Source: an uncultured Anaerolineaceae bacterium (GTDB taxonomy: Bacteria; Chloroflexota; Anaerolineae; Anaerolineales; UBA4823). From it: 64,000 nucleotides of DNA. A model generated the notes under the pieces. That model was not told the origin of the DNA and searched no databases. It worked only from the letters and a program-made list of their open reading frames with translations. The translations under genes were made by a program, and so were the position numbers. The stretch spans positions 51,801-115,800 of the forward strand of contig CAYMLG010000008.1 of assembly GCA_964391195.1 (NCBI GenBank), in the 5' to 3' direction. This document shows, piece after piece, positions 6,564 to 47,349 of this stretch. Numbering within the stretch: the first letter of the stretch is position 1; each line of letters begins with the position of its first letter.

Positions 6564-6565
6564 GG

Positions 6566-17112: not shown

Positions 17113-17126
17113 TGAAAGGATCCGGT

Positions 17127-19071: not shown

Positions 19072-19247
19072 ACCCTTCAGTTCGATTGGAGAACCGTTTT
19101 CACTACCGGTGTAGATTTTACCTCAGAGGAGGATAACCAAATTCTATCATCTCTTGTTCAGTTTCATCTGAGGAATCAGGGATGAGGGGCGGCAAGGAGG
19201 AAAAGGTGAAGGCCCAGGCCACGAAATGGCGGGCAGGGGTTACTGCT

Positions 19248-20366: not shown

Positions 20367-20492
20367 CCCACCGATTATAACCTCGCTTCTGCGTATGGCT
20401 CAGCATTTTGTAGACAGCTTACAGAGATGCAATTTACTCGCTTGCCTCAGGGGGGAGGTTATGGGATAATGCCGGTGAAGCCTGGACATACC

Positions 20493-24025: not shown

Positions 24026-24055
24026 ACGCCGCTCAGGCCGTTGGCAATTGTTCAA

Positions 24056-24088
24056 CCGGGCAGCTAACAAGATTGTTAGCTGCCCGGC
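24056..24088 (+). terminator. Rho-independent terminator after the kinase pair
   Basis: CCGGGCAGCTAACAA-gat-TTGTTAGCTGCCCGG is a perfect 15-bp stem. It is followed by a T-rich stretch (CTCTTTCTGTCCCTTTTTGC). Confidence 0.75.
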
Positions 24089-24184
24089 GACTCTTTCTGT
24101 CCCTTTTTGCTGTTCTTATGGATAGAGGCGCTGTTTCTGCCGCTTGGTGCGCGCAGAGTTATTCTTCGTTAAACAGGAGGCAGG

Positions 24185-26308
24185 ATGGAAATGCAACCCC
24201 AACAGGCAAAAGTACCCTGGAAGATCATCCTCCCCGGGATCGCGGCCATGGTCGTGCTCTCCCTGTGCGTCGTGGCGGTCATCCTCACCGCCGGAAGCCG
24301 GATGATCTTCTCTGGAGAGGGAGAGCCCCGGGCAGAAACTGCGAACCAGGCCAGGACAGAGGGGGTGGTGAAACCGGAAGCGGAGGGGGGCGATAGTTCC
24401 AGGCCCGAAGACGCAGAGGGCGGACGCCTCCAGCTCGCGACGGAGGCGGCACAGCTCGCGGTTGAGGCGGCGCAGCTCGCGACCTACACCGGTTGGGTCG
24501 AGGTGCAGCGGGACGACGGGACCTGGGCTGCTGCGGAAGCAGGGCAGGCTCTACAGGCCGGGCAGCGCCTGCGAACGGGGGAGCTATCCTCGGCTGAAGT
24601 GATCTTCTTCGACGGCAGCCGGGCGCGCCTGCTGGCGAACAGCGAACTCTCCATCGATGAACTGCAGTGGCGGGAGAAAAGCGACCAGCGCACGATCCTG
24701 CTGACCCAGTGGGCCGGGGAGAGCGAACATGAAGTGGCGGAGAACAAAAAGGCAGGTTCGCGTTACGAAGTCCGCACCCCGGCGGGCAGCGCCGAAGCCA
24801 GGGGGACCATCTTCCTCGTCGCCGTCTCACCCGAGCAGACGGCGCGCTACGTAGTGATCGAAGGTGTGGTAGCTGTCACCCACCTGGAAGTGACTGTGCT
24901 GGTCAACGGCGGAGAAGCGACAATCGTCTACCTGGACCAGCCGCCAATGCAGCCGTTCGCCAGGGTGACCGTGGAGGGGCTGGTCTCCCAGGTGGGAGAT
25001 ACCTGGATCGCCGGCGGACAGTCCTTCATCGTTGATGGGCGGACGGCCGTGGTGGGCGACCCGCAGCTTGGCGACTGGGTGCGAATCGAGGGGCGCATCG
25101 GCCAGGACCAGGCCCGGATCGCCGATTGGATCATCCTGCTGCGCCGTTCTCCGGCCGACCGCTTCCAACTGCGAGGGGTGGTCGAGGCGATTGGCGAGGT
25201 CGAGTGGCTGGTGAACGGCCAAACCGTATTGATCTCCGCCGGCACGGTGATCGACGATGGGATTCAGACAGGGGACGCGGTCCAGGTAGCCGGGGAACTG
25301 CTCCCCGGAGGCTCGCTGCAGGCGGAAGAAATCCGTAAAATCCCGCCTGATCTGGGGCTGCCGCTGGAATTCACCGGCGTCCTGCAGGAGATGGGGACGG
25401 AGATCTGGCGGGTCTCGGGGTTGGATATCCGTATCACAGAGGACACCCTCCTGGCGCAAAACCTGGAGACCGGCGCCTCCGTCCGGGTGCGAGGATGGAT
25501 TCAAGATACGGGTGCGATCACTGCGGCGAGCATCCTGCTCGCCGGGGAGGAAGAACAGTCCTTCGAGATCACCGGCGTACTTGAGAGCCGGGAGCCGTGG
25601 CAGGTGGCCGGGGTGGGCTTCGAGGCCACCGATTGGACCGAGATGGACGGCGACCTGGCCGTTGGAGAGCTGGTGCGCGTGGAGGGGCAGATCACCGGCG
25701 ATGGGCGCTGGATCGCATCTGAAATACGGCGTGTGGCAGAACGGTCTACCCGCCTGGTGCTGGTGGGGACGGTGATGGCGATCGATCCCTGGATCGTGAG
25801 CAGTATCCCGCTCACGGTCACCGCAGAGACGGTGATCGAGGGTGAGATCACGCCGGGGATGCTGGTGCGGGTGGAGATACTGCTGCTGCCCGGGGGCGAA
25901 TGGCAGGTCTTACGCATCCAGGGCCTCGAATCGGCCGTTACCCTGCCTGTGTGCCAGGAGATTCTGGCGACCGTGGTTAGGGTGAAGAAAGAGGATATCG
26001 AGCTGTTCGGGTGGCCGGCGCTGGATCTGGGTGAAGGCATCCAGGTGGACGGCTTCCTGAGGCCAGACAGCGTGGTGCGTGTCCAGTTGTGCTTCACCGT
26101 GGAGGGGACGATTGAGGTTACCTATATCATCGTGATCGACCAGTTGGAGTTCGAGCCCGACCCGGATGACGAACCCGGGATGGGCGGGCACAAGGTGGAT
26201 ATTTGCCATAAGCCCGATAAGAAGAAAGGCGGGCACACCATCAATATCGATCAGGCGGCCATCCCTGCCCATCTGGGGCACGGAGACTACCTGGGACCCT
26301 GCCGCTGA
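24185..26308 (+). CDS. Membrane-anchored FecR-domain protein with about six DUF5666-like repeats and a Cys/His C-terminal motif
   Basis: 707 aa. N-terminal TM, then a FecR-like segment (GWVEVQRDDGTWAAAEAGQALQAGQRLRTGELSSAEVIFFDGSRARLLANSEL). About six 60-aa repeats of the type hxhxGxV ... G..V.V.G follow. The C-terminus reads KVDICHKPDKKKGGHTINIDQAAIPAHLGHGDYLGPC. Confidence 0.7.
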   Translation: MEMQPQQAKVPWKIILPGIAAMVVLSLCVVAVILTAGSRMIFSGEGEPRAETANQARTEGVVKPEAEGGDSSRPEDAEGGRLQLATEAAQLAVEAAQLATYTGWVEVQRDDGTWAAAEAGQALQAGQRLRTGELSSAEVIFFDGSRARLLANSELSIDELQWREKSDQRTILLTQWAGESEHEVAENKKAGSRYEVRTPAGSAEARGTIFLVAVSPEQTARYVVIEGVVAVTHLEVTVLVNGGEATIVYLDQPPMQPFARVTVEGLVSQVGDTWIAGGQSFIVDGRTAVVGDPQLGDWVRIEGRIGQDQARIADWIILLRRSPADRFQLRGVVEAIGEVEWLVNGQTVLISAGTVIDDGIQTGDAVQVAGELLPGGSLQAEEIRKIPPDLGLPLEFTGVLQEMGTEIWRVSGLDIRITEDTLLAQNLETGASVRVRGWIQDTGAITAASILLAGEEEQSFEITGVLESREPWQVAGVGFEATDWTEMDGDLAVGELVRVEGQITGDGRWIASEIRRVAERSTRLVLVGTVMAIDPWIVSSIPLTVTAETVIEGEITPGMLVRVEILLLPGGEWQVLRIQGLESAVTLPVCQEILATVVRVKKEDIELFGWPALDLGEGIQVDGFLRPDSVVRVQLCFTVEGTIEVTYIIVIDQLEFEPDPDDEPGMGGHKVDICHKPDKKKGGHTINIDQAAIPAHLGHGDYLGPCR

Positions 26309-26328
26309 GCGGGGTTCCGCTGCCGAAC

Positions 26329-26353
26329 GGCCGGGCTGAGGCGCAGCCCGGCC
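26329..26353 (+). terminator. Terminator-like hairpin
   Basis: GGCCGGGCTG-aggcg-CAGCCCGGCC lies 21 nt after the stop. The T-run (26374-26379) is about 20 nt away, so the intrinsic-terminator call is weak. Confidence 0.4.
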
Positions 26354-26472
26354 GGATCGATTTAAACCTGCCCTTTTTTCGTAACAAGAGGATTAGAGAA
26401 AGGAGGTGTGACTGGACAAGCCTTTAGATATATGTAACAATTCTCTTAACGATTATTCTGAAATGAGAGACT

Positions 26473-28056
26473 GTGGTGGATGCTCATTCGCGTGATATCC
26501 AAAAACTGAAGGCCCGCCTGAGGTCCCTTTCGGCCTCCCTACAGCGCTCCGAAAAAAGCCGCCGCCGCTACCAGGCCTTGTTCGAACACGCCCCCAACGG
26601 CTATCTGCTCACCGACCTGTCCGGGACGATCTACGAAGTAAACCAGGCCGCAGCCCATCTGCTGAACACCTCTGCGACCGCAATCCGGGGGAAATCTCTC
26701 CTGCAGTTCCACCCACCCCAAGAGCGGATGGATTTGCTGCGCCGGCTCGCCCACCTCCAAAACGACCTGAAAAAAGCCATGTCCGATTCCGGCCTGGGCG
26801 CCGGCCCTGGCCAGGCGCCGGACTGCCGGCGCTGCTTCCAGGAATGGGAGACGATGATCCAACCTGCGGAGAAAGAGGCCTTCTACGCCGCCCTCGCCAC
26901 TTCGCCGGTGTGGATCGAAGATCGTTTGGGGTTGATGTGGTCGATCCGCAGCATCCACACCTACAAGCTGGAAGTGAAAGCGGCGCAGGACAGCGAGAAG
27001 CACTTCCGCACCCTGGCCGAGACCAGCTCGGTAGCCATCTTCCTGGTGCAAGGAGATCAGATCGAGTACGCCAACCAGGCGGCCATCCAGATGCTCGGCT
27101 ACTCGCAGGCGGAGATCCTCCACCGCCCCTTCTCCGATTTCATCCGCCCTCCCGACGACGCCCGCATCGCCCGCCTGCTGCAGGTGACCAACCGCAAGGA
27201 GATGAGCGAGCGCACCACCCCGCTCAACGCCCTGCGCTCCGAGGTCTCCCTGATCCCCAAAAACGAAGACGAGTGCTGGGTGGACCTGACCCTCGGCGTT
27301 ACAGAGATCGGGGAAAGGATCATGTGGGTCGTCACCGCCTACGATACCACCCAGCGCGTACAGGGAGAGCGGCGGCAGAAAGAACTGCTCCAGGCCATTG
27401 TGTCGTTCCTGGAGGCGGAACGCGGGCGCATCGCCAGGGAGATGCACGACCAGATGGGGCAGACCGTTACCGCGCTGATCCTGGGGCTGAAAGGGCTGGA
27501 GCCCTATCTGCGGGCCGGGGTGGCGGTGAGGCGGCGGTTGGAGCAATTGCAGGCGATGGTTGACGAGCTCAGCCAGGATATGCACCGGGTGGCCTTCGAG
27601 CTGCGACCCACTTCGCTGGATGATCTTGGACTGAAATCGGCGCTTGCCAACCTGATCGACGACTGGGGCGAGCGCCATCAAATCACGACAGAATTCGAGG
27701 TGGTCGCCTACCCCGATGAACCTCTGTCGGGTGAAGTGACTTCGGCCATCTATCGTATCGTACAGGAGGCGCTGAACAATATCTTGAAGCACGCCGGCGC
27801 CTCCCAGGTCAGCGTAATTCTCGACTGCCGGAATGGGATGGCTAAGGCGGTGATCGAGGATAACGGAGCAGGATTCGATTTCAAAGAGGGCATGCACTGG
27901 CAGGGGGGGCCGCATCGATTGGGTTTATATGGAATGATGGAACGCGCGGCTCTATTGGGGGGTAAAGTAAATATAGAAACTGCACCCGGCCAGGGAACCA
28001 CGATTTACGCCAGTATTCCTTACCAGACCGTAGGACGAGATAGCGCAAATGGATAA
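26473..28056 (+). CDS. Cytoplasmic PAS-domain sensor histidine kinase (HisKA_3/NarX-class)
   Basis: 527 aa, GTG start, no TM helix seen. Coiled-coil plus two PAS-like regions. H-box RIAREMHDQMGQ, N-box EALNNILKHA, G1 DNGAGF, G2 GLYGMMERA. Confidence 0.9.
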   Translation: MVDAHSRDIQKLKARLRSLSASLQRSEKSRRRYQALFEHAPNGYLLTDLSGTIYEVNQAAAHLLNTSATAIRGKSLLQFHPPQERMDLLRRLAHLQNDLKKAMSDSGLGAGPGQAPDCRRCFQEWETMIQPAEKEAFYAALATSPVWIEDRLGLMWSIRSIHTYKLEVKAAQDSEKHFRTLAETSSVAIFLVQGDQIEYANQAAIQMLGYSQAEILHRPFSDFIRPPDDARIARLLQVTNRKEMSERTTPLNALRSEVSLIPKNEDECWVDLTLGVTEIGERIMWVVTAYDTTQRVQGERRQKELLQAIVSFLEAERGRIAREMHDQMGQTVTALILGLKGLEPYLRAGVAVRRRLEQLQAMVDELSQDMHRVAFELRPTSLDDLGLKSALANLIDDWGERHQITTEFEVVAYPDEPLSGEVTSAIYRIVQEALNNILKHAGASQVSVILDCRNGMAKAVIEDNGAGFDFKEGMHWQGGPHRLGLYGMMERAALLGGKVNIETAPGQGTTIYASIPYQTVGRDSANG

Positions 28057-28708
28057 GATCAAAATCTTCCTGGCCGAAGATCACTCCGTCGTGCGTGAAG
28101 GCGTAAAAATGCTGATCAACGCCCAACCCGATATGATCGTGATCGGTGAAGCGAGCGATGGAAGAGAAGCGGTGACGAAAGTGCTCGAGCTAAATCCGGA
28201 CGTGGTGATTCTGGATGTGACCATGCCGGTGCTCACCGGCACGAGCGCGGCCATCGAGCTGAGACAGAAGAGACCAGACATCCTGATCCTGGCTCTCAGC
28301 GTGCACGAAGACAAAAGCTACTTTCGCGAGCTGTTCCAGGCGGGCATTTCCGGTTATGTGCTCAAACGCTCGGCGGCCAACGAACTGATCAACGCCATCC
28401 GCATCGTCTCCAGCGGTGGGATCTACCTCGACCCTTCGATCGCCGGCAAGGTGGTCAGCGAATTTGTCGACCCAAGCGAGCCGGTGACTTTCTTGGCCGA
28501 GGGGCAGCTTCTCAGCCAGCGTGAACGTGAAGTGCTGCGCCTGATCGCTCATGGCTATACGAATAAAGAGATCGCTTCCGAACTCAACATCAGCATTAAA
28601 ACCGTCGAAACTTACCGCTCCCGTGCCATGCAGAAAATCGGTCTCAACAGCCGGGCGGATATCGTCCGTTTTGCCGTCCAGGCCGGCTGGTTAACCGACG
28701 AATTGTGA
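28049..28708 (+). CDS. NarL/LuxR-family response regulator
   Basis: REC (IFLAEDHSVVREG, DVVILDVTMPVLTG) plus LuxR HTH (LSQREREVLRLIAHGYTNKEIASELNISIKTVETYR). 8-nt overlap with the kinase gene. Confidence 0.9.
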   Translation: MDKIKIFLAEDHSVVREGVKMLINAQPDMIVIGEASDGREAVTKVLELNPDVVILDVTMPVLTGTSAAIELRQKRPDILILALSVHEDKSYFRELFQAGISGYVLKRSAANELINAIRIVSSGGIYLDPSIAGKVVSEFVDPSEPVTFLAEGQLLSQREREVLRLIAHGYTNKEIASELNISIKTVETYRSRAMQKIGLNSRADIVRFAVQAGWLTDEL

Positions 28709-28841
28709 ACCAAATCGCCTCTTTTGACGTCTACTATTTATAGCGATTTGCGTTCACCGATCGGCTCTTTTCTCGATTCGGACCGGCTGCGAGTAAACCG
28801 GTAGCGGCCGGGTTATTTCTTCAATCAAGGAGGGCAACCAT

Positions 28842-31580
28842 ATGCCTGGTAAAGGCTCACGCGGTTTCCAGATCGTATCTGTCCTGTTAGCGGTCATCCT
28901 GTTGTTCAACATCACCGCTTGTACGTCAAGGACTCCCCAACCCGGCTCCGATGGCCCCAAGGCGACTTCGGCCAACGCCCCCGCCGGCGAACTTGACGAC
29001 GGTCCGGCTTCGATCACCTTCGCCATGAACGAATATGAGGCCCGGATGTACGAGCCCCTCATTGAACAGTTCATGGCCGAAAACCCCGACATCACCGTGC
29101 AAATTGTGGAACCGCCTCAGTTCGGTCCGGACGACCAGCCGGAGAACATCAACTGGTGGCGGCTCATGGCCTCGGCCTCCGACACGACCATCATCTGGGG
29201 CGGATCGATGGATCCCAACCAGTCCCACTACTTCCGCGACCTGGGGCCGCTGATGGATGTGGACCCCACCTTCGATGCGGATGACTTTTGGCCCGGGGCC
29301 CTGGACGCCTGCACCGACGCCGAAGGGCGGGTGCTGGGGATTCCGTTGAACTTCACAGTCAACGGCGTTTTCTTCGATGAAGAAGCTTTCGATGCCGCCG
29401 GACTCCCACACCCCGGCCCCGGCTGGACCTTCGAGGACCTCCAGAAGGCCGCCCGGACTCTGACCGAACAGCGGGGCGACCAGACCCGCTATGGCCTGGC
29501 CGAGCGCGAGTCGCTTTACAGTTCGATCGTCGCGCCTCTCGTCGTCACCCACCTGTTAGAACAGGGCGATGACCCAGACGGGGAAGGACTGGAAGCCGAG
29601 TTGGGTTGGTATCTATCTCTGGCGAAGGAAGATGTAATTTATGCCATCCGCCAGGTGGAAGATTGGAGCAAGAGTTGGGAAGAGTGGATGGCCTTGTTCT
29701 CAGGCGACGCGCGCCCGGCGATGTGGGCCGGATCGATCTCCGAAAGCCTGCCCGTAAATGGACCCATGGGTATCAATGCGAGTGACCCGTTCTCCTACAT
29801 GGCGTTCAGGACCTATGGTTTTGCCCCCTATCCGATCGACTCGGAGCGCCCGGAGCTCGGCACCACGCCGGTATACCCCATGTGCATCGCCATCAGCTCC
29901 GGTTCCCTACACCCTCGCGCCGCCTGGGCCTGGGTGAATTTCCTGACCAGGCAGGTGCTGACGCTCGACGAGTACAACGTGTACGAGCGGCTGAGGGTGC
30001 CGTCGCGCATCTCCGTCGCAGAGGCGAGCGGCTACTGGGATATGCTCCCCAAGGAGATCGGCGATGCGGTTCGCTACGGGATCGAGCACGCCTGGATCAG
30101 CACCTTCTTCCCGGAGAGCTTCAGCGCGGTTGAGAAAGCGATCGTGGAAGCGATCTATCAGGGCGCCGACCTTTCCACGGCTTTAGATAGCGCCATGGCC
30201 GAGATCGTCAAAATGCCGACGCCCACCCCAGACACGGTAGAAGTCGTGGTCGCTACGCCGCCGGCGCCTCCGCCCGAAGATGCTACCGTGATCAAGTTCA
30301 TGATGCAGAATTACTCGCCGGATAGCAACCAGTTGATCAAAGAGACGATCGCCGCCTTCCAGCAGGCTCACCCCGACATTTACATCGATCTCTCGACCGA
30401 CCCCGGAATCACCGGGCCGGATGCCATCGACGACTGGTACGACTTCCTGGGTGGAAAATTCGACTGCTATTCCTGGTGGCCGTCCTTCAGCCCTGAATTT
30501 CCGCCGAACTCCGCACTCAGCCTGAACGCCCTGATCGAAGCCGAGGGCCCGGAGTTCATCCAGGATTTCCCCGCCGACCAGTTGGATGTCTACCGGGTGG
30601 GTGGTGAGCTGTACGGCCTGCCGGCTTTCTCTCAGCCACGGATCGTATCCTACAACATCGATCTTCTCGAAAAACGCGGAGTCGAACCCCCCAGCCCGGA
30701 TTGGACCATGGACGATTTCATCGAGCTGATCTCCAAAGTCGCCTCCACTTCGGCCTCCGACCCCAGCTACGGCCTGCTCTACAGCACCTGGGAAGATGTC
30801 CTGCTGTCGGGCCGGGGGGTGAAATGGCTGGACGCGACGAAGGACCCGCCCGAACCTCTGTTCGACTCGCCCGATATGGTCAGCGCTTTGGCCTGGCTGT
30901 CGGATTTGGTGCAGTCCAACGGAGTGATCTTACAGGATGGCACCAACTGGGAGAAGGTCGACGAGGCGCTCCGCACGGGCAAGGTGGGTTTCTGGTTCTC
31001 ACAGGCCGGGATGACCGATTGGTTCTTGATGGGTCCAAGCGGCCAACCGTCCTTCAAGGTCGGTGTCGTTCCGCTGCCGGTCATGCAAGAAGGGACCGAT
31101 TATGCGAATATCTACGCCTCAACGAATTCACAGGGGCTGTTCATCTCTGCCACTACCGAACACGTCCAGGCATGTTGGGATTGGATCAAATTCCTATCCG
31201 AACAGCCAAACGCTTTCTCCGGGGTCCCTTCCCGGATCTCGGTAGTCGAATCGCCTGCCTACAAGGCGCTGGTTGGCGAGCAGGTGGCCGAAGCTTACAT
31301 CGCTGCTGTGAAACAGTCCGTTCAGCCCGACCCAAACCAACCGACCTACGGCCCATTGACCTGGCCTATGTACGAGTGGCGCAACCAGGCGATAACCGCT
31401 GTGCTGGGCGGTGAAGACGCCGAAGAGGTGCTCACCGACACGCAGCAAAAAGCTGAGGACTTCCTTTCCTGTGCGGTGCTCATCGACCTGGAGGGCAAGG
31501 ATGATATGGAGCTGTCCAAAGAAGTGTACGGCTGCGCCCGGCAGGTGGACCCCCAAGGAAACTGGCCCGTGTACGAATAG
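28842..31580 (+). CDS. Lipoprotein made of two tandem family-1-type extracellular solute-binding domains
   Basis: 912 aa with lipobox LFNITAC. Two SBP-like modules each begin with a typical strand-helix (ITFAMNEYEARMYEPLIEQFMAENPDITVQIV and VIKFMMQNYSPDSNQLIKETIAAFQQAHPDIYIDL). Confidence 0.75.
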   Translation: MPGKGSRGFQIVSVLLAVILLFNITACTSRTPQPGSDGPKATSANAPAGELDDGPASITFAMNEYEARMYEPLIEQFMAENPDITVQIVEPPQFGPDDQPENINWWRLMASASDTTIIWGGSMDPNQSHYFRDLGPLMDVDPTFDADDFWPGALDACTDAEGRVLGIPLNFTVNGVFFDEEAFDAAGLPHPGPGWTFEDLQKAARTLTEQRGDQTRYGLAERESLYSSIVAPLVVTHLLEQGDDPDGEGLEAELGWYLSLAKEDVIYAIRQVEDWSKSWEEWMALFSGDARPAMWAGSISESLPVNGPMGINASDPFSYMAFRTYGFAPYPIDSERPELGTTPVYPMCIAISSGSLHPRAAWAWVNFLTRQVLTLDEYNVYERLRVPSRISVAEASGYWDMLPKEIGDAVRYGIEHAWISTFFPESFSAVEKAIVEAIYQGADLSTALDSAMAEIVKMPTPTPDTVEVVVATPPAPPPEDATVIKFMMQNYSPDSNQLIKETIAAFQQAHPDIYIDLSTDPGITGPDAIDDWYDFLGGKFDCYSWWPSFSPEFPPNSALSLNALIEAEGPEFIQDFPADQLDVYRVGGELYGLPAFSQPRIVSYNIDLLEKRGVEPPSPDWTMDDFIELISKVASTSASDPSYGLLYSTWEDVLLSGRGVKWLDATKDPPEPLFDSPDMVSALAWLSDLVQSNGVILQDGTNWEKVDEALRTGKVGFWFSQAGMTDWFLMGPSGQPSFKVGVVPLPVMQEGTDYANIYASTNSQGLFISATTEHVQACWDWIKFLSEQPNAFSGVPSRISVVESPAYKALVGEQVAEAYIAAVKQSVQPDPNQPTYGPLTWPMYEWRNQAITAVLGGEDAEEVLTDTQQKAEDFLSCAVLIDLEGKDDMELSKEVYGCARQVDPQGNWPVYE

Positions 31581-31615
31581 CCAGCCTTGAACCAACCTTT
31601 ACCAGGGAGCGAACT

Positions 31616-34519
31616 TTGGCATTGATCAACAGCTTTTCATTTGCTCTCAAACGGCTCTGGTCCCACCGCTGGCTGGTGCTGTGCCTGGCAGTGGGGCTGA
31701 CGGTGGCGGTAGCCCTGGCGGTCGCTGTACCGCTGTACGCCGACTCGATCCACTACGCGCTGCTGAGCGAAAGCCTGGAGCGCTCGGCTGCCGCCACCCG
31801 CCGCTCGCCGTTCACCTTCATCTTTCACTACGTCGGCGCCTGGTACGACCCGGTCACCCTGGAGCAGTACCAGCCGGTGGACGCCTATCTGAGCGAGCAA
31901 ATGGCGGGGGTGATCGGTCTGCCCCTGGATGAAACCGCGGGCGGGGTAACGCGTTACGTTGCCACCGACAACATCCAGCTCTACCCGAATGGGCCCACCA
32001 TCCGCCGCAGCGAGCGCATCGACCTGGTGCGGCTGACCTATGTCGAGGGCATCTTCGAGAACATCCAACTGGTGGAAGGTGAGCTCCCCAGGCCGGCCGG
32101 GGAAAACGGGATCGAGGGCGAGGACGGTGTGATCGAAGTCCTGGTCTCGCTGGCCATGGCTAACGAGCTTGGCTTGCAGGCCGGCGATGTATACCGCCTG
32201 CAGCGCCCCGGCGAGCCGGGCGAGGAATCCTTCCAGATGCGCATGCGCATCTCCGGCATCTGGGCCCCTCTGGATGAGAGCAGCAGCTTCTGGTTTTACC
32301 CGCCGGGCTCTTTCGACAAAAAGCCGTTGGTGCCGGAGGAGACCTTTTTCGAGGCTGTCGCGCCCAGGATCGCGCGGCCGGTCTACGAAGCTGTATGGAG
32401 CCTGTCTTTCGATGGGAGCGGCGTGCACAGCGAGGATGTCCCCGGCCTGCTGAGGCGGGTGAGCCGGGCGCAGACCGAGGCCAACGCCCTGCTGCCCCAC
32501 ACCGACCTGGAGGCCTCCCCGGTCACGGCGCTGCGCGGCTACCGCCAGCAGGCCCTGGGCCTGACCAACCTGCTGTTCGTGGTGGCCGCGCCGGTGCTGG
32601 GCCTGGCGCTGTACTTCCTGGGCCTGGTGGCAGCGATGCTGGTGCGCCGCCAGCGGAATGAGATCGCCGTGCTGCGCAGCCGGGGCGCTTCGCAGCGCTG
32701 GGTGGCCGGGGTGTACTTGCTGGAATGGTCGCTGCTCGGGGTCGTTGGCCTGGCGGCAGGGCCCTGGTTCGGGATGGCGGTCGCCCGCCTGGTGGGGCAG
32801 ACCGAATCTTTCCTGGTCTTCTCCACCCGCACTAATCTGGCCCTGCGCCTGACCCCGGGCACGGTGACCTTCGGCCTGCTGTCCGTGGGGTTGGCGCTGG
32901 TGTTCAGCCTGGTGCCGGCCTGGCAGGCCGGGAAGTTCACCATCATCTCGTATAAACAAGAACGGGCGCGGGCCAGCCGGCGCCCGCTGTGGCAGCGGGC
33001 CTACCTGGACCTGATCGTCCTGGCCCCAGCCCTGTACGGCCTGTATACACTGCGGGCCCAAGGCAAGCTCCAACTGCTGGGACGGACGCTGGGCAGCAGT
33101 GACCCCTTCGAGAACCCGCTGCTGTTCCTGCTGCCCACCCTGTTCATCGTCGCCCTCAGCCTGCTGGTGCTGCGGATCCTGCCTTACCTCCTCTTGGGGC
33201 TCGCCTGGCTGGCGGCCCAGTTCCCGGGCACCGTCCCGGTGCTGGCCCTGCGCCAGTTGGCGCGCTCCTCCGGGGCGCACACCGCCCCGCTGATGCTGCT
33301 GATCATCACCCTGAGCCTGGCAGGGTTCGTCGCCTCCATGGCTCACACCCTCGACCGGTCGCTGGCCGACAGCGTCTACTATGCCGTCGGAGCCGACCTG
33401 AACCTGGTGGAAGGTGGAGAATACACCGGGGAAGAGGAGGACGGAGTCCGGCCCCAGGACATTTTTACCCAGGGTGGCCCGCAGCCTCCCACCCGCCAGA
33501 TCAGCGAGGCGGCGGTGTGGAACTTCCTCCCCGCCTCGGACCACTTGAATCTGCCCGGGGTAGAGGCGGTCGCGCGGGTGGGACGCTACAGCTCCCGCCT
33601 GCATGCCGGCGGACGCTCGGCCAGTGGGCGGCTGCTGGGGATTGACCGCGTCGATTTCCCCAACGTCGCTTTCTTCCGCCCCGACTTCGGCAGCGAGCAC
33701 CTGGTGGCCCTGATGAACCGCCTGGCCTCCGAACCTTCTGCCCTGCTGGTGGACCGGCGGACCTGGGAGCAGTACAACTTGAGCACCGGCGATACCGTGG
33801 AAATGACGGTGGACCTCAGCCAACGGCAGCGGCTGCCCTTCAAGGTGGCCGGGTTTGTGGAGTATTTCCCCACCATGTACCCGGAAGACGGCCCGTTTTT
33901 CATCGCCAACCTGGACTACATCTTCGAATCAGCCGGCGGGCTGCAGCCCTACGACGTCTGGCTGCGGACCGCGCCGGACGCCGACAGCCGGGCGATCGTC
34001 TCCGGCATCCAGGCCCTGGGGGTGGCGGTGCTGCGGGCGCAGGACGCCCGGCAGATTTTGGACGATACGCTCAACGCCCCCAACCGCCAGGGGATGCTCG
34101 GCCTGCTCTCTGTGGGCTTCCTGGCGGCTTCGGTGCTGACGGTGATCGGCTTCCTGCTGTACGCCGTCCTTTCCTTCCGCGAGCGCTTTGTGCAGCTTGG
34201 GGTGCTGCGCGCCCTGGGCCTCTCCATGCGCCAGATGGCGGCCGCCCTGGCCCTGGAGCAGTTCATCCTGATCCTGGCCGGGATCGCCGCCGGCACAATG
34301 ATCGCCGTGCTGGCCGCTTCTCTGTTCATCCCCCACCTGCCGGTCACCTTCGGCAGCCATCCGGGCACGCCGCCCAACTCGATCCAGATCGGCTGGATTG
34401 AGATCGCTCGGGTTTACCTGATCTTCGCCGCGGTGCTGGTGCTCGGGGTGAGCGCCACCCTGTGGTCCCTGCGCCGCATGAAAGTCTTCCAGGCAGTAAA
34501 AATGGGCGAAAACGTCTAA
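31616..34519 (+). CDS. MacB/FtsX-type ABC permease with two FtsX modules (about 10 TM)
   Basis: 967 aa, TTG start. N-terminus ALKRLWSHRWLVLCLAVGL, a large extracytoplasmic domain, a 3-TM FtsX bundle (EIAVLRSRGAS), a second extracytoplasmic domain, and a second FtsX bundle (RFVQLGVLRALGLS). Confidence 0.85.
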   Translation: MALINSFSFALKRLWSHRWLVLCLAVGLTVAVALAVAVPLYADSIHYALLSESLERSAAATRRSPFTFIFHYVGAWYDPVTLEQYQPVDAYLSEQMAGVIGLPLDETAGGVTRYVATDNIQLYPNGPTIRRSERIDLVRLTYVEGIFENIQLVEGELPRPAGENGIEGEDGVIEVLVSLAMANELGLQAGDVYRLQRPGEPGEESFQMRMRISGIWAPLDESSSFWFYPPGSFDKKPLVPEETFFEAVAPRIARPVYEAVWSLSFDGSGVHSEDVPGLLRRVSRAQTEANALLPHTDLEASPVTALRGYRQQALGLTNLLFVVAAPVLGLALYFLGLVAAMLVRRQRNEIAVLRSRGASQRWVAGVYLLEWSLLGVVGLAAGPWFGMAVARLVGQTESFLVFSTRTNLALRLTPGTVTFGLLSVGLALVFSLVPAWQAGKFTIISYKQERARASRRPLWQRAYLDLIVLAPALYGLYTLRAQGKLQLLGRTLGSSDPFENPLLFLLPTLFIVALSLLVLRILPYLLLGLAWLAAQFPGTVPVLALRQLARSSGAHTAPLMLLIITLSLAGFVASMAHTLDRSLADSVYYAVGADLNLVEGGEYTGEEEDGVRPQDIFTQGGPQPPTRQISEAAVWNFLPASDHLNLPGVEAVARVGRYSSRLHAGGRSASGRLLGIDRVDFPNVAFFRPDFGSEHLVALMNRLASEPSALLVDRRTWEQYNLSTGDTVEMTVDLSQRQRLPFKVAGFVEYFPTMYPEDGPFFIANLDYIFESAGGLQPYDVWLRTAPDADSRAIVSGIQALGVAVLRAQDARQILDDTLNAPNRQGMLGLLSVGFLAASVLTVIGFLLYAVLSFRERFVQLGVLRALGLSMRQMAAALALEQFILILAGIAAGTMIAVLAASLFIPHLPVTFGSHPGTPPNSIQIGWIEIARVYLIFAAVLVLGVSATLWSLRRMKVFQAVKMGENV

Positions 34520-34530
34520 GGAGCCAATCG

Positions 34531-35937
34531 ATGATAAAACAAGCGCGAATTTTACTGCTGATCTTTGCGTTCATCTTATCCGCCTGCGGCGTCTCGGGGG
34601 CGGCGGAACCCACTCCGACCCCGGCCCCCACCCCCATCGTTGCCCAAAAGCCGACTTACACCGTCGCCCGGGGTGAAGTGACCCGCACCCTGCGCCTGAC
34701 CGGTCGGGTGACCCCGGTGCAGCAGCAGGACCTGTTCTTCCGGGCGGACGGCTTCGTGCGCGAGGTGTACGTCAAGCGGGGGGATACCGTGAACGAGGGC
34801 GATGTGCTCGCCCGGCTGGACGACCCGGAGAAATTCCTGGCCGATCTGTCGGCGGCGGAGCTCGCCCTGGAGCAAGCGCGGGTAGACCTGGAAAAGTTGA
34901 TCCTGGAGGCGCCGGTGAAGGCAGCCGAAGCCCAACAGGCCCTGGTGGAGGCCGAGCTGGAGTTGAAAAAGGCCCAAAACCGCCGTACGTACATGAACTA
35001 CGACAAAGTGGCCGACGACCTCATCATCCAAAAAGCGGAAGCCGAGTACCTGACCGCCAAGCAGCGGGTGAAGGAAGCCCAGAAGGCGTTCGACGCGGTG
35101 GCGCATAAGAAGCTCACCAACCCGGAACGCATGGCCGCTGTGGAAGCCCTGCTAGCTGCTAAACAGGAGATGGACCGCGCGTTGTCTCTTTATAACTGGT
35201 ATCTTCTCCCGCACTCCCCTGCCGATGTGGCCCAGGCGGACGCCGACCTGGCCCTGGCCGAGGCCGAATACACGACTGCCCTGGCCGAGTGGGAGCGGCT
35301 GAAAGACGGGCCGGACGAACACGACCTGCGGCTGGCGGAGGCCAAAGTGGCCGACGCCGAAGCCCGCCTGGCCATCGCCCAGAAAGCGCTGGAGAACATC
35401 GAACTGCGCGCCCCCTTCTCCGGGCAGGTGCTTTCCATCGCCCTCACACCCGGCAGCCAGGTTACCGCCTTCCGCCCGGTGCTCACCGTGGCAGACCCCT
35501 CCCAGCTCAATATCACCGCCTTCCCCACCCAGGAGGAGCTGCGCGACCTGGGCGTTGGCCAGCCCGCCGTGATCCAGCTCAGCAGCCGCCAGGGCCAGAA
35601 CCTGACGGGCCGCATCACCCAGACGCCGATCGCCGAGACCACCGGGGGCCAGGAGCAGGGCCAGCAGCAAGACCAGGCCCTCCATATCGCCCTCGATGAC
35701 CCCGACATCCCCCTCACCCTGGGCGAAGTTGCCAGCATCACCATCCAGGTAGAGAGCCGGGAGGATGTGCTCTGGCTGCCCGTGGCCGCCCTGCGCACCT
35801 TCCAGGGGAGGGACTTCGTCTTCGTTGAAGAGAACGGCATCCAGCGCCGGGTGGACGTGGTCCTGGGCCTGCGCAGCAACGAGCGTGTGGAAATCGTCGA
35901 GGGCCTGCAAGAGGGCCAGACCGTGATTGGACAGTAG
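34531..35937 (+). CDS. HlyD/MacA-type periplasmic adaptor (membrane-fusion protein), lipoprotein
   Basis: Start set at ATG 34531 (AAGGAG RBS at 34518-34523) rather than the ORF-track start 34462. Lipobox ILSACG, lipoyl-like GDTVNEGDVLARLD, a long coiled-coil, and a beta-barrel C-terminus. Confidence 0.85.
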   Translation: MIKQARILLLIFAFILSACGVSGAAEPTPTPAPTPIVAQKPTYTVARGEVTRTLRLTGRVTPVQQQDLFFRADGFVREVYVKRGDTVNEGDVLARLDDPEKFLADLSAAELALEQARVDLEKLILEAPVKAAEAQQALVEAELELKKAQNRRTYMNYDKVADDLIIQKAEAEYLTAKQRVKEAQKAFDAVAHKKLTNPERMAAVEALLAAKQEMDRALSLYNWYLLPHSPADVAQADADLALAEAEYTTALAEWERLKDGPDEHDLRLAEAKVADAEARLAIAQKALENIELRAPFSGQVLSIALTPGSQVTAFRPVLTVADPSQLNITAFPTQEELRDLGVGQPAVIQLSSRQGQNLTGRITQTPIAETTGGQEQGQQQDQALHIALDDPDIPLTLGEVASITIQVESREDVLWLPVAALRTFQGRDFVFVEENGIQRRVDVVLGLRSNERVEIVEGLQEGQTVIGQ

Positions 35938-35940
35938 CCG

Positions 35941-37101
35941 ATGGCTGAACCGCTCATCGTTTGTGAAGGCCTGGTAAAGATCTATTCTCTGCAGGGGGTC
36001 GAGGTTCTCGCCCTGCAGGGGCTGGACCTGACGGTGGAAGCAGGCGAGCTGCTGGGGATGGTGGGCGCTTCCGGCTCGGGGAAATCCACCCTGCTCAACG
36101 TGCTCGGCGGGCTGGACCGCCCCTCGGCGGGCAAGGTGACGGTGGGTGGGCGCGACCTGCTCAAGCTCTCGGACGCAGAGTTGGATGAGTACCGCCGCAC
36201 TCAGGTGGGGTTCGTCTGGCAGCAGACCACTCGTAACCTGATCCCCTACCTGACCGCCCGGGAGAACGTCGAACTGCCGCTGCGGCTGACCAACATGGGG
36301 CGGGCGCAGCGCCGCCAGCGGGCCGAAGAGTTGCTGCAGGCGGTGGGGCTTAGCCACCGTATGGAACACCTGCCCGCCCACCTGTCCGGCGGCGAACAGC
36401 AGCGGGTAGCGATCGCAGTTGCCCTGGCTAACCGGCCGTTGATCTTGCTGGCGGACGAACCGACGGGTGAAGTGGATACAGCCACCGCCCAGGAGATCTA
36501 CGCCGTCTTGCGTAAGATTAATCAGGAATACGGGATGACGACCATCATCGTCTCCCACGACCAGGACCTGAGCCGCCACACCGATCGTGTAGTGGCGATT
36601 CGTGACGGGAAAACCAGCACAGAAACCGTGCGCTACGTCCGCCGGGCGGCCATCCACAGTGGCGCAGCCCTCGGCCTGGACAGAGCGGACCACCCGGCCG
36701 GTGATGATCAACCGGGCGGTGAAGAGCACCCCGCCGGAGGTGACCATGCGGAGGAAACGGCGCACAGGCCGCCGGAGTTCGAAGAATTGGTGGTGCTGGA
36801 CAGCGCCGGTCGCTTGCAGTTGCCGCGCGAATATTTGGAAGCGCTCAATATCGGCGACCGGGTGCGGGTGGAGTTGAAAGACGGTGGGATACAGATCCGC
36901 CCGGTCGAGGGCCGCGGCCGCAACCAGAACCAGACCCCGGCCGAGGAGCTTTCCAGCCCGGTAGACCTGTACGAACCCGAGCCTGACGGTGCGCCGCCCA
37001 GAGAAAGCCAGCCCGGAGCGTTCGTAAAGCGGGTGCGCGACCTCATCACCCAGGTGCGCCTGCCCCTCCCCCGGCAGGCGAAGCGCGAGAAGAAGGAGTA
37101 A
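35941..37101 (+). CDS. ABC ATP-binding protein (MacB/LolD class) with a 150-aa C-terminal extension containing an AbrB/SpoVT-like segment
   Basis: Walker [25 protein letters not shown], Walker [13 protein letters not shown]-loop VSHD. The extension includes [38 protein letters not shown]. Confidence 0.9.
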
Positions 37102-37110
37102 CCCGGCGAA

Positions 37111-37815
37111 ATGGAGACACAGCACAACGGGAACCAATCAGACGGGACCCTCGTCAGCGTACGCCAGGCGACCCGCACCTACCATGTGGACGGGCGAGAA
37201 GTGCACGCACTGCGCGGGGTGAATCTGGACCTGCAGCGCGGGGTCCTGGCAGCGCTGAAAGGCCGCTCCGGCTCGGGGAAGACCACCCTGCTCAACCTGA
37301 TCGGCGGGCTGGACCGCCCCACCAGCGGCAGCGTGTACTTCGAAGGCCAGCCGCTGGGCGAGTTGAGCGACAATGAATTGACCCGCCTGCGCCGCAGCCG
37401 GATGGGCTTTGTGTTCCAATCATTCGCCCTGCTGCCCACCTACTCGGCCTACGAGAACGTCGAACTCATGCTGCGCCTGGCGGGGATGAACCGGCAAGAG
37501 CGCACCGAGCGGGTGCGCCGCTCTCTGCGCGTGGTAGGGCTGGAAGGGCGGATGCAGCATCGCCCGGACGAAATGTCGGGCGGGCAGCAGCAGCGGGTAG
37601 CGATCGCCCGCGCCCTGGCCACCAAACCGGTGCTCATCCTGGCCGATGAGCCCACCGGCGAATTGGATACGACCACCACCCGCCAGATCCTGTCCCTGTT
37701 CCGTTATCTGGTGGAGCGCGAGGGGGTCACCATCCTGACCACTACCCACGACCCGATCGTGGATGAATACGCCGACGTGATCTACACCCTGCATGACGGC
37801 CAGTTGGTTGAATAA
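37111..37815 (+). CDS. ABC ATP-binding protein (MacB/LolD class), second ATPase of the locus
   Basis: Walker [25 protein letters not shown], Walker [13 protein letters not shown]-loop TTHD. Confidence 0.9.
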
Positions 37816-37828
37816 CGCCTACACGAAA

Positions 37829-37863
37829 AAGAGAGGGTTTCCCCGGAAGGACAACCCTCTCTT
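37829..37863. terminator. Bidirectional terminator hairpin between convergent operons
   Basis: AAGAGAGGGTT (37829-37839) pairs with AACCCTCTCTT (37853-37863), with A-run/T-run flanks. Confidence 0.6.
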
Positions 37864-37892
37864 GTTACCCATTTCGAAATTCGATATCCTCC

Positions 37893-39230
37893 CTACCTCG
37901 CCATCCCCACTTCTTCCCTGGCGATCTGAGCGAAGACGCACTCGAAGACATCAATCGCCAGATCGATCTCTTCCGGCTGGATCACCAGGGGCGGGGCGAT
38001 CCGGATAATATTGCCGAACTGCCCCACCTTTCCGAGTAGCACCCCGCGTTCGGCCGCGCCAAAGATAATGCGGCGGGTGAGCTCAGGCGAAGGCTTCTTC
38101 CCCCCGGAAGGCTCGACGATCTCCAGCCCGAACACCAGCCCCCGGCCGCGCACGTCGCCCAGGAAGGCATACTTCTTCTGCAGGGCCTCCAGCCGGGGTT
38201 TGAGATATTCACCCATCCGGAGCGCCCGCTGCGGCAGGTTCTCTTCTTCCATCGCATCCAGCACGGCGAGCACCGCCGCGCTGGCCAGGGGGTTGCCGCC
38301 CCAGGTGGAGGATAACTCGCCGGGCGACATGCATTCGAAGATGCGGCTCTCGGCAGCCACCGCAGAAGCGGGGATGCCGCTGCCCATGCCCTTGCCCAGG
38401 CAGAGCATATTGGGCTCGACCCCTTCCCATTCGATGGCGTACATCTTCCCCGTGCGTCCAAAGCTGGCCTGCACCTCATCGACGATCAGCACCAGGTCGC
38501 GCTCGCGCGCCCAGTTCGCCAGAGCTGCCAGCCAACCGTCCGGGGGGAAGATGAATCCGGCCGCGCCCTGGTAGGGCTCGACGATCACCGTGCCCAGATC
38601 GCCCGACGAAGAGCAAGCGATCAACTGGTCCAGGGCCTTCAGGCAGTACATCTCACAGTCGGGGTAGGTCTTCCCGTAGAAGCAGCGGTAGCAGTAACCG
38701 TAGGGAGCCATGATCCCACCCGGGACGGGGACGCCAAAGCCGCGGCGAGTGCCCCGGCTGCCGGCGACCCCCATCGCCCCATAAGTGCGGCCATGGAACC
38801 CGCCGTAGAACGCCAGCACTTCCTGCTTGCCGGTGAAACGGCGCGAAACCCGCAGAGCAGCCTCCGTCGCTTCGGCGCCGGTGCTCAGCATGAACACACG
38901 GTCCAGGTTTTTCGGGAACGTTTTCACCAGCCGGCTGGAAGCGGTGATCCGCTCCGGGGTGGGGAAAGAATAGGTGTTCATCAAGCGTGGAGCCTGGTTC
39001 TGGATGGCGCTTACCAGGCCGGGGTGATTGTGGCCCAGGTTGGTGACCAGCACCCCGGAAGTGAAGTCAATATATGGGTTGCCATCCACATCCCATATCC
39101 ATACCCCCTGTCCGTGATCCCAGACAATCGGCGTCTGGTCGGCCGCGCAGGGCGGTTCACAAGTCCCCCCGATCTGCAAATACTCCCGGGATTTTGGCCC
39201 CGGCACCTCTCGCAAAGGGAGCGATTTCAT
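37893..39230 (-). CDS. Class III (acetylornithine/GABA-type) PLP-dependent aminotransferase
   Basis: 445 aa with motifs STGAEATEAALR, DEVQASFGRTGKMYA and LCLGKGMGSG (PLP lysine). Confidence 0.85.
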   Translation of the reverse strand: MKSLPLREVPGPKSREYLQIGGTCEPPCAADQTPIVWDHGQGVWIWDVDGNPYIDFTSGVLVTNLGHNHPGLVSAIQNQAPRLMNTYSFPTPERITASSRLVKTFPKNLDRVFMLSTGAEATEAALRVSRRFTGKQEVLAFYGGFHGRTYGAMGVAGSRGTRRGFGVPVPGGIMAPYGYCYRCFYGKTYPDCEMYCLKALDQLIACSSSGDLGTVIVEPYQGAAGFIFPPDGWLAALANWARERDLVLIVDEVQASFGRTGKMYAIEWEGVEPNMLCLGKGMGSGIPASAVAAESRIFECMSPGELSSTWGGNPLASAAVLAVLDAMEEENLPQRALRMGEYLKPRLEALQKKYAFLGDVRGRGLVFGLEIVEPSGGKKPSPELTRRIIFGAAERGVLLGKVGQFGNIIRIAPPLVIQPEEIDLAIDVFECVFAQIAREEVGMAR

Positions 39231-44435: not shown

Positions 44436-45278
44436 TCACCGCCCCGGGAAGTACGTGCGGGCCACGGTTAGCGCCAGATTGGTGCATACGATCCGCACCT
44501 GCTGCAGACGGCGATAATCATCCGCCTCGAAAGCCACGGTGCGCCCATCGACGCGTTCCACGGTCGGGATGAACTCGCACAGGTCGGCCGCCTGAGGCAG
44601 AACGAACTCGATTTCCATGCGGAAGCGGTCTGGGAGAGCGAGCGGTTGGATCTCCGGGCAGCGGGCGACTGCCCGAGCGGCTGCAGCTTGCACCAGCTCA
44701 TGGGCCTCTCCGAGCGGCAGGTGATGGGCAGTGTATGCGGCTATCCCATGTTTGACCACCGCGGTCTCAATCCCGGGCACCGTCCGCCGGGCTTCTTCAC
44801 AGTACCGGTCGTCGCCCACGGCCAGGACGACCGGCACTTGATGATAGCCTGCCCATAAAGCCGACATCCCAAATTCGCCGACCGGCTGGCCGTTGATGCG
44901 GATCTCAACCAGGTCGCGCATCACGTAGGTGTGAGCCAGGACTCCCCGCTGTGTGCCCGCCTGCGCATGGCCCATGATGATCGCCCCGGCGAAAGAGGAA
45001 TCCAGGCCGTGCATCTGGTTATCCGCTTTCAGGTAGCCGGAGATCAGGCTGGCTTTGGGGTGTAACCGTTCCAGGTCCAGGTAGTTCATCTCGGCGTGAG
45101 CCTCGTTGACCACCACTGTCTGAGCTCCCCCCGCCAGGGCGCCTGCGACGATGGCATTGATCTCTGCCGTCCACAGCCGCCGCCCGGTTTCGAACGATGG
45201 ATGACCCGCAAAGCACTGGCGGGGGTCGACAATCCCTACCGCGCCTTCGAAATCTGCGGAGACGTAAATCTTGCTCAT
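44436..45278 (-). CDS. Peptidase M55 (DppA-type D-aminopeptidase) family protein
   Basis: 280 aa. Family-typical N-terminus MSKIYVSADFEGAVGIV and NEAHAEMNYL. Confidence 0.75.
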   Translation of the reverse strand: MSKIYVSADFEGAVGIVDPRQCFAGHPSFETGRRLWTAEINAIVAGALAGGAQTVVVNEAHAEMNYLDLERLHPKASLISGYLKADNQMHGLDSSFAGAIIMGHAQAGTQRGVLAHTYVMRDLVEIRINGQPVGEFGMSALWAGYHQVPVVLAVGDDRYCEEARRTVPGIETAVVKHGIAAYTAHHLPLGEAHELVQAAAARAVARCPEIQPLALPDRFRMEIEFVLPQAADLCEFIPTVERVDGRTVAFEADDYRRLQQVRIVCTNLALTVARTYFPGR

Positions 45279-46405: not shown

Positions 46406-46412
46406 AGGGCCA

Positions 46413-47324: not shown

Positions 47325-47349
47325 GGTTTTCCTTTCCGCCAGGCTTCGC

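Follow-up and report, generated by a model that had tools for sequence, protein, structure and literature searches.

Solute-binding proteins (SBPs) are regarded as the signature of ATP-binding cassette (ABC) importers of types I-III, and type VII systems as mechanotransducers whose partners are adaptors, LolA, EnvC or TesA. What, then, is an SBP gene doing within an operon for a type VII (MacB/FtsX-type) pump? The question is raised by positions 26473-37815 of the DNA analysed here, a stretch of 64,000 nucleotides from an uncultured Anaerolineaceae bacterium (contig CAYMLG010000008.1, positions 51,801 to 115,800; hereafter the window). The operon encodes a lipoprotein with two tandem SBP modules, a fused FtsX-type permease, a membrane-fusion adaptor and two distinct ATPases, next to a histidine kinase and a response regulator. 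We find that the pairing of this double SBP with the pump genes recurs in many related genomes, and the operon is therefore probably an undescribed Chloroflexota variant of the MacB/YbbP-type pump class. It is likely that the SBP works together with the pump. A preliminary description of this DNA had stated that MacB-type systems are not known to use SBPs; indeed, we found no description in the literature of an SBP together with an FtsX, MacB, HlyD or type VII system.

The seven genes are co-directional and tightly spaced, as the preliminary description had it, and their open reading frames (ORFs) fall exactly where it had placed them. Domains were called with Pfam and NCBIfam on the window proteins, which verified the earlier assignments of all seven, and folds were examined with AlphaFold2 (AF2) single-chain models and Foldseek. 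The features are as follows.

26473-28056, + strand: soluble PAS histidine kinase gene (Pfam, NCBIfam)
28049-28708, + strand: NarL/LuxR-type response regulator gene (Response_reg and GerE)
28842-31580, + strand: double SBP lipoprotein gene, 912 amino acids (SBP_bac_1 in two stretches)
31616-34519, + strand: fused type VII ABC permease gene, 967 amino acids (FtsX in two stretches)
34531-35937, + strand: membrane-fusion adaptor lipoprotein gene, 468 amino acids (HlyD_3, HlyD_D23, Biotin_lipoyl_2, RND_mfp)
35941-37101, + strand: ATPase 1 gene, 386 amino acids (ABC_tran)
37111-37815, + strand: ATPase 2 gene, 234 amino acids (ABC_tran)
37830-37862, unstranded: perfect 10-bp hairpin (AGAGAGGGTT ... 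AACCCTCTCT), read directly from the sequence

From kinase to ATPase 2, the intergenic gaps are -8, 133, 35, 11, 3 and 9 nucleotides (with the adaptor starting at ATG 34531), the first being an 8-nucleotide overlap of the kinase and regulator genes. An AGGAGG lies 8 nucleotides 5' of the double SBP ATG. The hairpin, 15 nucleotides past the ATPase 2 stop codon and between convergent genes (the next encodes an aminotransferase), is a probable transcript end. The consensus scan missed it because its loop is 13 nucleotides long; for promoters and terminators in 26200-38000, that scan gave counts not above those of shuffled sequence and is uninformative. At the upstream side, a hairpin with a T-run stands 3' of the FecR/DUF5666 gene.

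The 912-residue protein was described as two tandem family-1 SBP modules, and the whole question would fall away if it had no SBP folds. Two such folds are seen by sequence, in the AF2 model and with Foldseek. The protein begins with a signal peptide carrying the lipobox ITAC, whose Cys27 is almost invariant among 58 homologs. Its two halves are homologous (21% identity over 374 amino acids, E 8e-10), and each matches solved sugar- or oligosaccharide-binding proteins by sequence. The AF2 model (pLDDT 87, pTM 0.82) consists of two complete SBP folds and a proline-rich linker, with Lmo0181, MalE3, TMBP, UgpB and GacH as the top Foldseek matches.

Amino acids ~56-457 (nucleotides 29007-30212), + strand: SBP module 1 (SBP_bac_1, AF2 model)
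Amino acids 458-481, + strand: proline-rich linker
Amino acids ~482-905 (nucleotides 30285-31556), + strand: SBP module 2 (SBP_bac_1, AF2 model)

The permease has the type VII architecture. In its AF2 model (pLDDT 90.9, pTM 0.84), 10 transmembrane (TM) helices are arranged as 4+2+4: two FtsX-type 4-helix units, each with a large TM1-TM2-type ectodomain and a coupling helix, are joined by TM5-6 as a linker, and both ectodomains are of the MacB/Lol type.

Amino acids 62-300 (nucleotides 31799-32515), + strand: ectodomain 1, between TM1-2 (AF2)
Amino acids 592-820 (nucleotides 33389-34075), + strand: ectodomain 2, between TM7-8 (AF2)
Amino acids 347-355 and 858-866, + strand: coupling helices, after TM2 and TM8 (AF2)

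Its best full-length fold match in the PDB is Escherichia coli YbbP (9ge6/9ge7, E 2.5e-19); BceB ranks second, followed by LolE/C and MacB, and the matches to YbbP, BceB, LolC/E, MacB, HrtB and YtrF span E values of 1e-19 to 1e-7. By sequence, the closest matches among solved structures are LolF and LolC. The two FtsX bundles and two large ectodomains of the preliminary description are thus present. The fused, two-ectodomain architecture is in itself already known, from YbbP and the ADOP family.

The YbbAP-TesA complex offers a precedent for part of what we propose. There, a fused type VII permease holds a periplasmic partner on its ectodomains (PMC12646458). The topology is the same, with 10 helices, ectodomains at TM1-2 and TM7-8 and a TM5-6 linker (PDB 9GE6-9GE8; PMC12646458), and the presence of a soluble or anchored partner protein on the ectodomains resembles the role envisaged here for the SBP. 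In contrast, YbbAP-TesA has two copies of one ATPase (YbbA), no adaptor and a lipid hydrolase as partner, whereas the operon has two distinct ATPases, an adaptor and a tandem SBP, and identity to the YbbP sequence is 14-15%. The operon contains no TesA-like gene; the candidates for a partner are the SBP and the adaptor.

The HlyD/MacA-type adaptor lipoprotein and two different MacB-class ATPases noted earlier are borne out by Pfam and NCBIfam. Taken mechanically, the adaptor ORF begins at GTG 34462, inside the permease gene; its true start is likely ATG 34531, directly before a predicted signal peptide (amino acids 1-27) and the lipobox LSAC. It scores 135 bits against TIGR01730 (RND_mfp; cut-off 94.9), its orthologs carry YknX_C and BSH_YknX matches, and by these matches it is classed as a YknX/MacA-like membrane-fusion (periplasmic adaptor) lipoprotein. 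ATPases 1 and 2 are 45% identical to each other. Their best NCBIfam matches are LolD, MacB, FtsE, DevA and DarD, all under the equivalog cut-offs, and their sequences assign both to the LolD/MacB/FtsE class without making either a named ortholog. The Walker A, Q-loop, signature, Walker B with catalytic Glu and H-loop motifs are kept in ATPase 1 (76 orthologs) and in ATPase 2 (69 orthologs); neither ATP site is degenerate, and both proteins are predicted to be catalytically competent. ATPase 1 alone has a conserved C-terminal motif of ~45 amino acids followed by a basic tail, and ATPase 2 has no extension.

Amino acids 279-322 (nucleotides 36775-36906), + strand: AbrB/MazE/MraZ-type swapped-hairpin domain of ATPase 1 (PF04014, PF02381 in orthologs)

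Among 19 ortholog C-termini, 13 match PF04014 (AbrB/MazE) and 9 match PF02381 (MraZ). The swapped-hairpin (AbrB-type) fold normally needs a second copy to complete its barrel; one copy of the domain is expected per pump complex, though the fold usually pairs.

Does this set of parts correspond to a named system? The preliminary description had found it unlike MacAB-TolC, LolCDE, FtsEX, BceAB and DevCBA, and the family thresholds tested agree. Those for LolCDE, MacA, DevBCA, lactococcin-972-type ABC and ADOP all failed, and only the generic adaptor family was passed. The lolCE model gives 23.5 bits against a cut-off of 362, and LolD (TIGR02211) gives 229 and 212 bits against 307.75; moreover, LolCDE has no adaptor gene, whereas the operon has one. 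We also considered the SBP as Lol-like cargo of the pump and rejected this: the adaptor tube offers no passage to a folded lipoprotein of 100 kDa, and adaptors are absent from Lol systems. For DevB the score is 61 bits against 129, and for DevA 178 and 193 bits against 295.8. For the MacA model NF008606, the adaptor reaches 60.8 bits against 342.

More can be learned from pumps that share components with the operon. YknWXYZ of Bacillus subtilis, Spr0693-0695 of Streptococcus pneumoniae and AS-48EFGH of Enterococcus faecalis likewise pair a type VII permease with a MacA/YknX-type adaptor in cells that have no outer membrane. Adaptors thus exist in Gram-positive bacteria lacking that membrane, where such MacAB-like pumps handle disulfide-containing or cyclic peptide toxins at the outer face of the membrane, with expression linked to stress regulators: YknXYZ protects against the disulfide peptide SDP, and AS-48EFGH confers bacteriocin immunity (PMC5985334). 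They differ from the operon in having homodimeric 4-helix permeases, one type of ATPase and no SBP, and the operon has no YknW/AS-48E-like protein. MacAB-TolC expels STII, a Sec-exported, disulfide-bonded peptide, from the periplasm (PMC5985334). This expulsion of a small disulfide peptide via an adaptor, by mechanotransmission, matches the peptide cassettes of the sister loci described below. It differs in its MacB homodimer with a fused N-terminal ATPase domain, its TolC outer-membrane duct and its lack of an SBP; no gene for an outer-membrane factor (TolC-type duct) is among the annotated genes of the window. With the CUT1 importers MalEFGK2 and UgpBAEC, the operon shares the SBP_bac_1 fold and family and lipoprotein anchoring, as in single-membrane bacteria. 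However, its permease is FtsX-type rather than BPD_transp_1, its ATPases are of the LolD/MacB class and lack TOBE domains, and its SBP has two modules per chain. Three features distinguish the system: a tandem SBP integrated into the operon, a fused permease with an obligatory pair of distinct ATPases, and the AbrB-like domain that one of these ATPases carries.

BceAB modules have one ectodomain (TM7-8), an intramembrane-sensing kinase, BceS, and an OmpR-type regulator, whereas the operon has two ectodomains, a soluble PAS kinase and a NarL-type regulator. The kinase comprises two PAS domains, HisKA_3 and HATPase_c (Pfam, NCBIfam) and has no hydrophobic segment (maximum KD19 1.12). The soluble PAS kinase/NarL pair of the preliminary description is thus confirmed in kind. 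Its conservation with the operon is not: kinases near homologous operons have different sensor domains, the regulators there vary between two-component systems and extracytoplasmic function (ECF) sigma/anti-sigma pairs, and NarL-type regulators recur beside double-SBP genes in part of the related loci (for example L002, L003, L079, L097, L123, L163 and L170). The PAS kinase is likely a local regulator and not a conserved part of the module. A role for it as a BceS-like partner was rejected because it is soluble. A second NarL-type response regulator, 33% identical to that of the operon and with no adjacent kinase, lies at 11064-11696 (+ strand).

These observations bear on the idea that the SBP and pump form a sensing device, which would inform the regulators of ligand load while transporting little on balance, much as in the flux sensing of BceAB-BceS. 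BceB is, after all, the second-best fold match of the permease, and two-component or ECF regulators adjoin many loci. Such a device is nonetheless highly improbable, given that the window's kinase cannot contact the permease within the membrane, that neither type nor position of the regulator is conserved, and that the adaptor would be left without a role.

Separately, in three loci (L003 1324-9997, L084 4246-12799 and L086 5490-14074) an ECF sigma factor, an anti-sigma-like protein and a double SBP form repeated cassettes, which suggests a separate ligand-responsive regulator for each SBP paralog. The zf-HC2 anti-sigma factor of L084 carries a fused SBP_bac_5 domain. Pfam and NCBIfam matched no family to the anti-sigma-like proteins of 271-282 amino acids.

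If the SBP gene stood beside the pump genes by chance, as the preliminary description allowed, it should not be co-conserved with the FtsX, adaptor and ATPase genes. We followed the association from both sides. Scanning one genome per species, the permease is encoded in at least 576 species-level genomes, and 80 loci were retrieved from these. Its relatives number in the hundreds, are full-length and show 45-70% identity. All 80 loci are titled Chloroflexota or unassigned, save one metagenome-assembled genome labelled Aquimonas, and lineages among them include Anaerolineae, Caldilineaceae, Roseiflexaceae, Ardenticatenaceae and the cultured Anaerolinea thermolimosa. In every retrieved locus with enough flank, the permease gene is accompanied by those for the adaptor and for a long and a short ATPase; these constitute a four-gene core. 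As an aside, some Caldilineaceae have an extra ~1.8 kb between permease and ATPase 1 (L051 12870-13829, with similar gaps in L057 and L078); in L051, the segment holds a 319-amino-acid ORF of atypical codon composition and may be an insertion.

Mapping a double-SBP profile onto the permease tree separated three clades. The window's clade has one to three double SBPs upstream of permease-adaptor-ATPase 1-ATPase 2, and a second clade has the double SBP upstream or between both ATPase genes. Together, these two clades carry a double SBP in 24 of 25 loci, the remaining locus having no flank. The third, large clade (Caldilineaceae, Roseiflexus, A. thermolimosa) has no double SBP, and four of its loci have single-module SBPs. 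The double SBP is therefore an accessory limited to certain clades and not universal in the permease family. Counting genomes and metagenomes, 18 loci have the SBP gene inserted between those for ATPase 1 and ATPase 2, mostly with gaps below 60 nucleotides or with overlaps. From the SBP side, metagenomes were scanned with a profile of 27 closer sequences, contigs with at least 6 kb of non-SBP flank being taken as informative; core genes were present on 17 of the 25 informative contigs, and 3 further ones, L097, L123 and L156, had a different fused double-FtsX permease of ~880 amino acids with one ATPase. The association thus recurs across genomes in both directions, with a varying position of the SBP gene (upstream or between the ATPase genes). 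In locus L099, up to six diverged SBP copies (25-35% identity) precede one pump; multiple diverged copies of a binding protein are the usual pattern for receptors. The SBP is also the fastest to diverge: its mean distance is 0.68, that of the permease 0.50 and those of the ATPases 0.33-0.39.

What might the ligand be? A clue comes from sister loci. In more than 14 of them, small ORFs of 80-125 amino acids lie directly upstream of double-SBP genes and, in several, of a fused FtsX permease gene. All of these genes directly precede either a double-SBP gene or one for a fused double-FtsX permease. Their products share a conserved leader, predicted as an N-terminal signal sequence, followed by a hypervariable core that is rich in Trp/Tyr and contains 6-12 Cys. 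Pfam and NCBIfam matched no family to them, and a database search with the peptide profile returned 20 proteins, none of them named.

L123 387-650, 3477-3734 and 7875-8186; L097 5231-5596; L120 9316-9600; L058 700-1056: cysteine-rich peptide ORFs
L125, L145, L147, L152, L153, L155, L156, L158, L160, L169, L170 and L171: further loci with cysteine-rich peptide ORFs
L097 5684-8377; L123 8239-10875; L169 641-3283 and 5045-7708; L170 8480-10843: second-family permeases

Three independent contexts show this pattern again: peptide then fused FtsX permease, twice running; peptide-SBP, peptide-SBP, regulator, permease; and regulator, SBP, thioredoxin, peptide, SBP. Genes that turn up repeatedly nearby encode membrane thioredoxin/AhpC-type proteins (thiol-disulfide oxidoreductases), ECF sigma/anti-sigma pairs, and a signal peptidase together with an ABC ATPase. 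The L058 locus has a pump of the window's own permease family. Other loci have a second family of fused double-FtsX permeases (~860-900 amino acids), likewise with double SBPs and cysteine-rich peptides; in L097, L123 and L156 one MacB-class ATPase gene comes after that of the second-family permease, and these loci showed no adaptor (the permease was checked with Pfam in L097 and L123, and L156 was assigned by its L123-like gene layout). The cysteine-rich peptides may be bacteriocin-like toxins or signals, and the ligand of a sister-locus pump is probably the adjacent peptide, in a role of secretion or immunity.

We propose that an inducible type VII (MacB/FtsX, mechanotransmission) envelope pump of Chloroflexota recruited a lipid-anchored tandem SBP as its ligand-capture subunit. 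The core would be one fused YbbP-like permease with a heterodimer of ATPase 1 and ATPase 2, one ATPase per coupling helix, and an adaptor that, by analogy, would form a hexameric tube across the wall layers. Expression would presumably be under the adjacent PAS kinase/NarL pair. The double SBP, tethered on the outer face of the membrane, would bind its ligand and present it to the paired ectodomains; ATP binding would then shut the ATPase dimer and zip the stalk helices, and the ectodomains would move, strip the SBP of its ligand and drive the ligand outward from the membrane, into the conduit of the adaptor. No substrate would pass the cytoplasmic membrane, as is the case for type VII transporters, in which ATP drives movement of the ectodomains (PMC5985334). 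Chloroflexota are increasingly viewed as having multilayered envelopes without a true outer membrane (10.1101/2025.08.19.671072). Within this scheme we infer the docking, the class of ligand and the direction of transport, starting from the gene content, folds, conservation and operon integration described above. The window has no cysteine-rich peptide gene, and its ligand could be an exogenous peptide or a glycan-bearing compound. We give this full model, with ligand capture by the SBP and expulsion outward via the adaptor, a little short of an even chance. Its more ambitious form, a first SBP-dependent type VII machine with one SBP module per ectodomain, opened by mechanotransmission and serving secretion of or resistance to hypervariable cysteine-rich peptides across Chloroflexota, is tentative and would sooner fail than hold.

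The LanI lipoprotein binds a peptide toxin at the membrane surface and cooperates with the LanFEG ABC transporter, which expels the toxin; the system is two-component-regulated. This resembles our model in joining a surface lipoprotein to an expelling ABC transporter, though LanFEG is ABC-2-type and LanI has no SBP fold.

Several points weigh against ligand capture by the SBP for the pump. An expelling pump that needs high-affinity receptors is unusual. The SBP modules are sugar-type (MalE/UgpB-like) and not of the peptide-binding type, and no cysteine-rich peptide gene was found in the window or its clade. Contact between SBP and permease is argued from genomic evidence, and a comparison of SBP-containing with SBP-lacking permease clades gave no clade-specific insertion or discriminating residue that could mark a docking site. 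The correlation between the distance matrices of SBP and permease (r 0.67, Mantel p <= 0.0005, against permease-ATPase values of 0.88-0.93) counts in favour of the pairing, but species phylogeny confounds this mirror-tree signal. Distant double SBPs (<=25% identity) are orphans with no transporter nearby. In L002/L084, from one genome, the SBP genes lie 3-20 kb away from the pump operon, a counter-example to tight linkage, and a double-SBP relative in L107 adjoins GH4 glycosidases and an acetyl-xylan esterase, a neighbourhood that points to carbohydrate use.

The orphans, the distant SBP genes of L002/L084, the sugar-catabolic neighbours in L107 and the lack of a docking feature would all fit a merely regulatory adjacency, in which the double SBP has no contact with the pump and is either a lone sequestering immunity lipoprotein or an orphan receptor for a MalFG-type importer elsewhere. 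A candidate importer stands 7.5 kb off in the window: a complete CUT1 sugar importer at 45275-49787 (- strand), consisting of an SBP of 464 amino acids, a pair of BPD_transp_1 permeases and a MalK-type ATPase that has OB/TOBE domains. No other BPD_transp_1 or MalK-type genes occur in the window, and the importer is separate from the operon. The earlier statement that no MalFG-type permease is present is accordingly correct for the operon, and holds beside double SBPs in every Pfam-annotated context, where no BPD_transp_1 gene was found, but not for the window. Yet this importer is on the other strand and has its own SBP. Moreover, mere adjacency explains poorly why the SBP gene should sit between the pump's ATPase genes in 18 loci, or why the association repeats with a second, unrelated family of fused FtsX permeases. 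We consider it unlikely.

The same sugar-catabolic context in L107 could speak for true import, with the fused 10-helix permease opening a transmembrane path to which the SBP delivers a nutrient such as a glycan. Nutrient uptake loci are characteristically marked by SBPs, by several diverged paralogs of them and by ligand-sensing anti-sigma factors (the SBP_bac_5 fusion in L084). Importer ATPases typically have regulatory domains at the C-terminus, and the C-terminal domain of ATPase 1 would then be a trans-inhibition module, as in MetN, ModC and MalK. Import is very unlikely, however, as no type VII structure has a transmembrane substrate path (PMC5985334), the operon's membrane-fusion adaptor is a feature of outward conduits, and catabolic genes are absent from most neighbourhoods.

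The sugar-type fold also bears on a different outward task, in which the SBP is an acceptor or chaperone: the pump would extract a glycolipid, lipo-oligosaccharide or other envelope unit from the outer leaflet and hand it to the SBP, in the manner of LolCDE to LolA, YbbAP to TesA or DevBCA glycolipid export, for assembly of the multilayered Chloroflexota envelope. The SBP fold is indeed of a sugar, glycerophosphodiester or glycolipid-headgroup type (UgpB, MalE-like matches), LolF and LolC are the permease's nearest sequence matches among solved structures, the presence of the four-gene core in all retrieved loci with flank suggests a housekeeping role, and every characterised type VII system passes work on to a partner in the periplasm (PMC12646458). 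A single acceptor should be enough, but loci have one to six strongly diverged SBP paralogs, and a large permease clade has no SBP. Variable, inducible regulators (ECF sigma, two-component) fit housekeeping biogenesis poorly, and the sister loci, with their cysteine-rich peptide cassettes, suggest peptides instead. We therefore doubt that the SBP is an acceptor, and return to ligand capture for outward expulsion as the preferred reading.

The rest of the window is of some interest in its own right. Upstream of the operon, 13502-26308 is a cell-wall signalling cluster that recalls the actinobacterial Fha-PstP-PbpA-PknAB arrangement. Its genes encode an 898-amino-acid protein that fuses a penicillin-binding transpeptidase with an M23 peptidase, a combination that looks unusual, as well as three proteins with FHA domains, one PP2C phosphatase, a pair of Ser/Thr kinase paralogs (49% identical) and a FecR/DUF5666 protein. 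An ABC-2-type exporter at 5331-8711 (- strand), with two ABC2_membrane_3 permeases and a DrrA-like ATPase, adjoins phosphoenolpyruvate carboxylase. Genes for sugar and amino-acid catabolism lie on either side of the CUT1 importer (PfkB kinase, KDPG aldolase, GFO/IDH/MocA, M20 and M55 peptidases). G+C content is 0.56-0.57 at 8001-12000 and 46001-52000, against 0.60-0.66 in the rest of the window.

If the SBP and the type VII pump do work as a pair, this pairing would give the mechanotransmission family a partner of a new kind, and dependence on SBPs would extend beyond importers of types I-III to the non-translocating MacB class. It would also provide a testable case of a Venus-flytrap receptor coupled to a transporter without a transmembrane pore. 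The four-gene pump core is now defined in hundreds of species of Chloroflexota, a phylum whose envelope is poorly understood. Finally, the sister loci hint at a so far unannotated peptide family, secreted and rich in cysteine, that these environmentally abundant filamentous bacteria may use as antimicrobials or signals.

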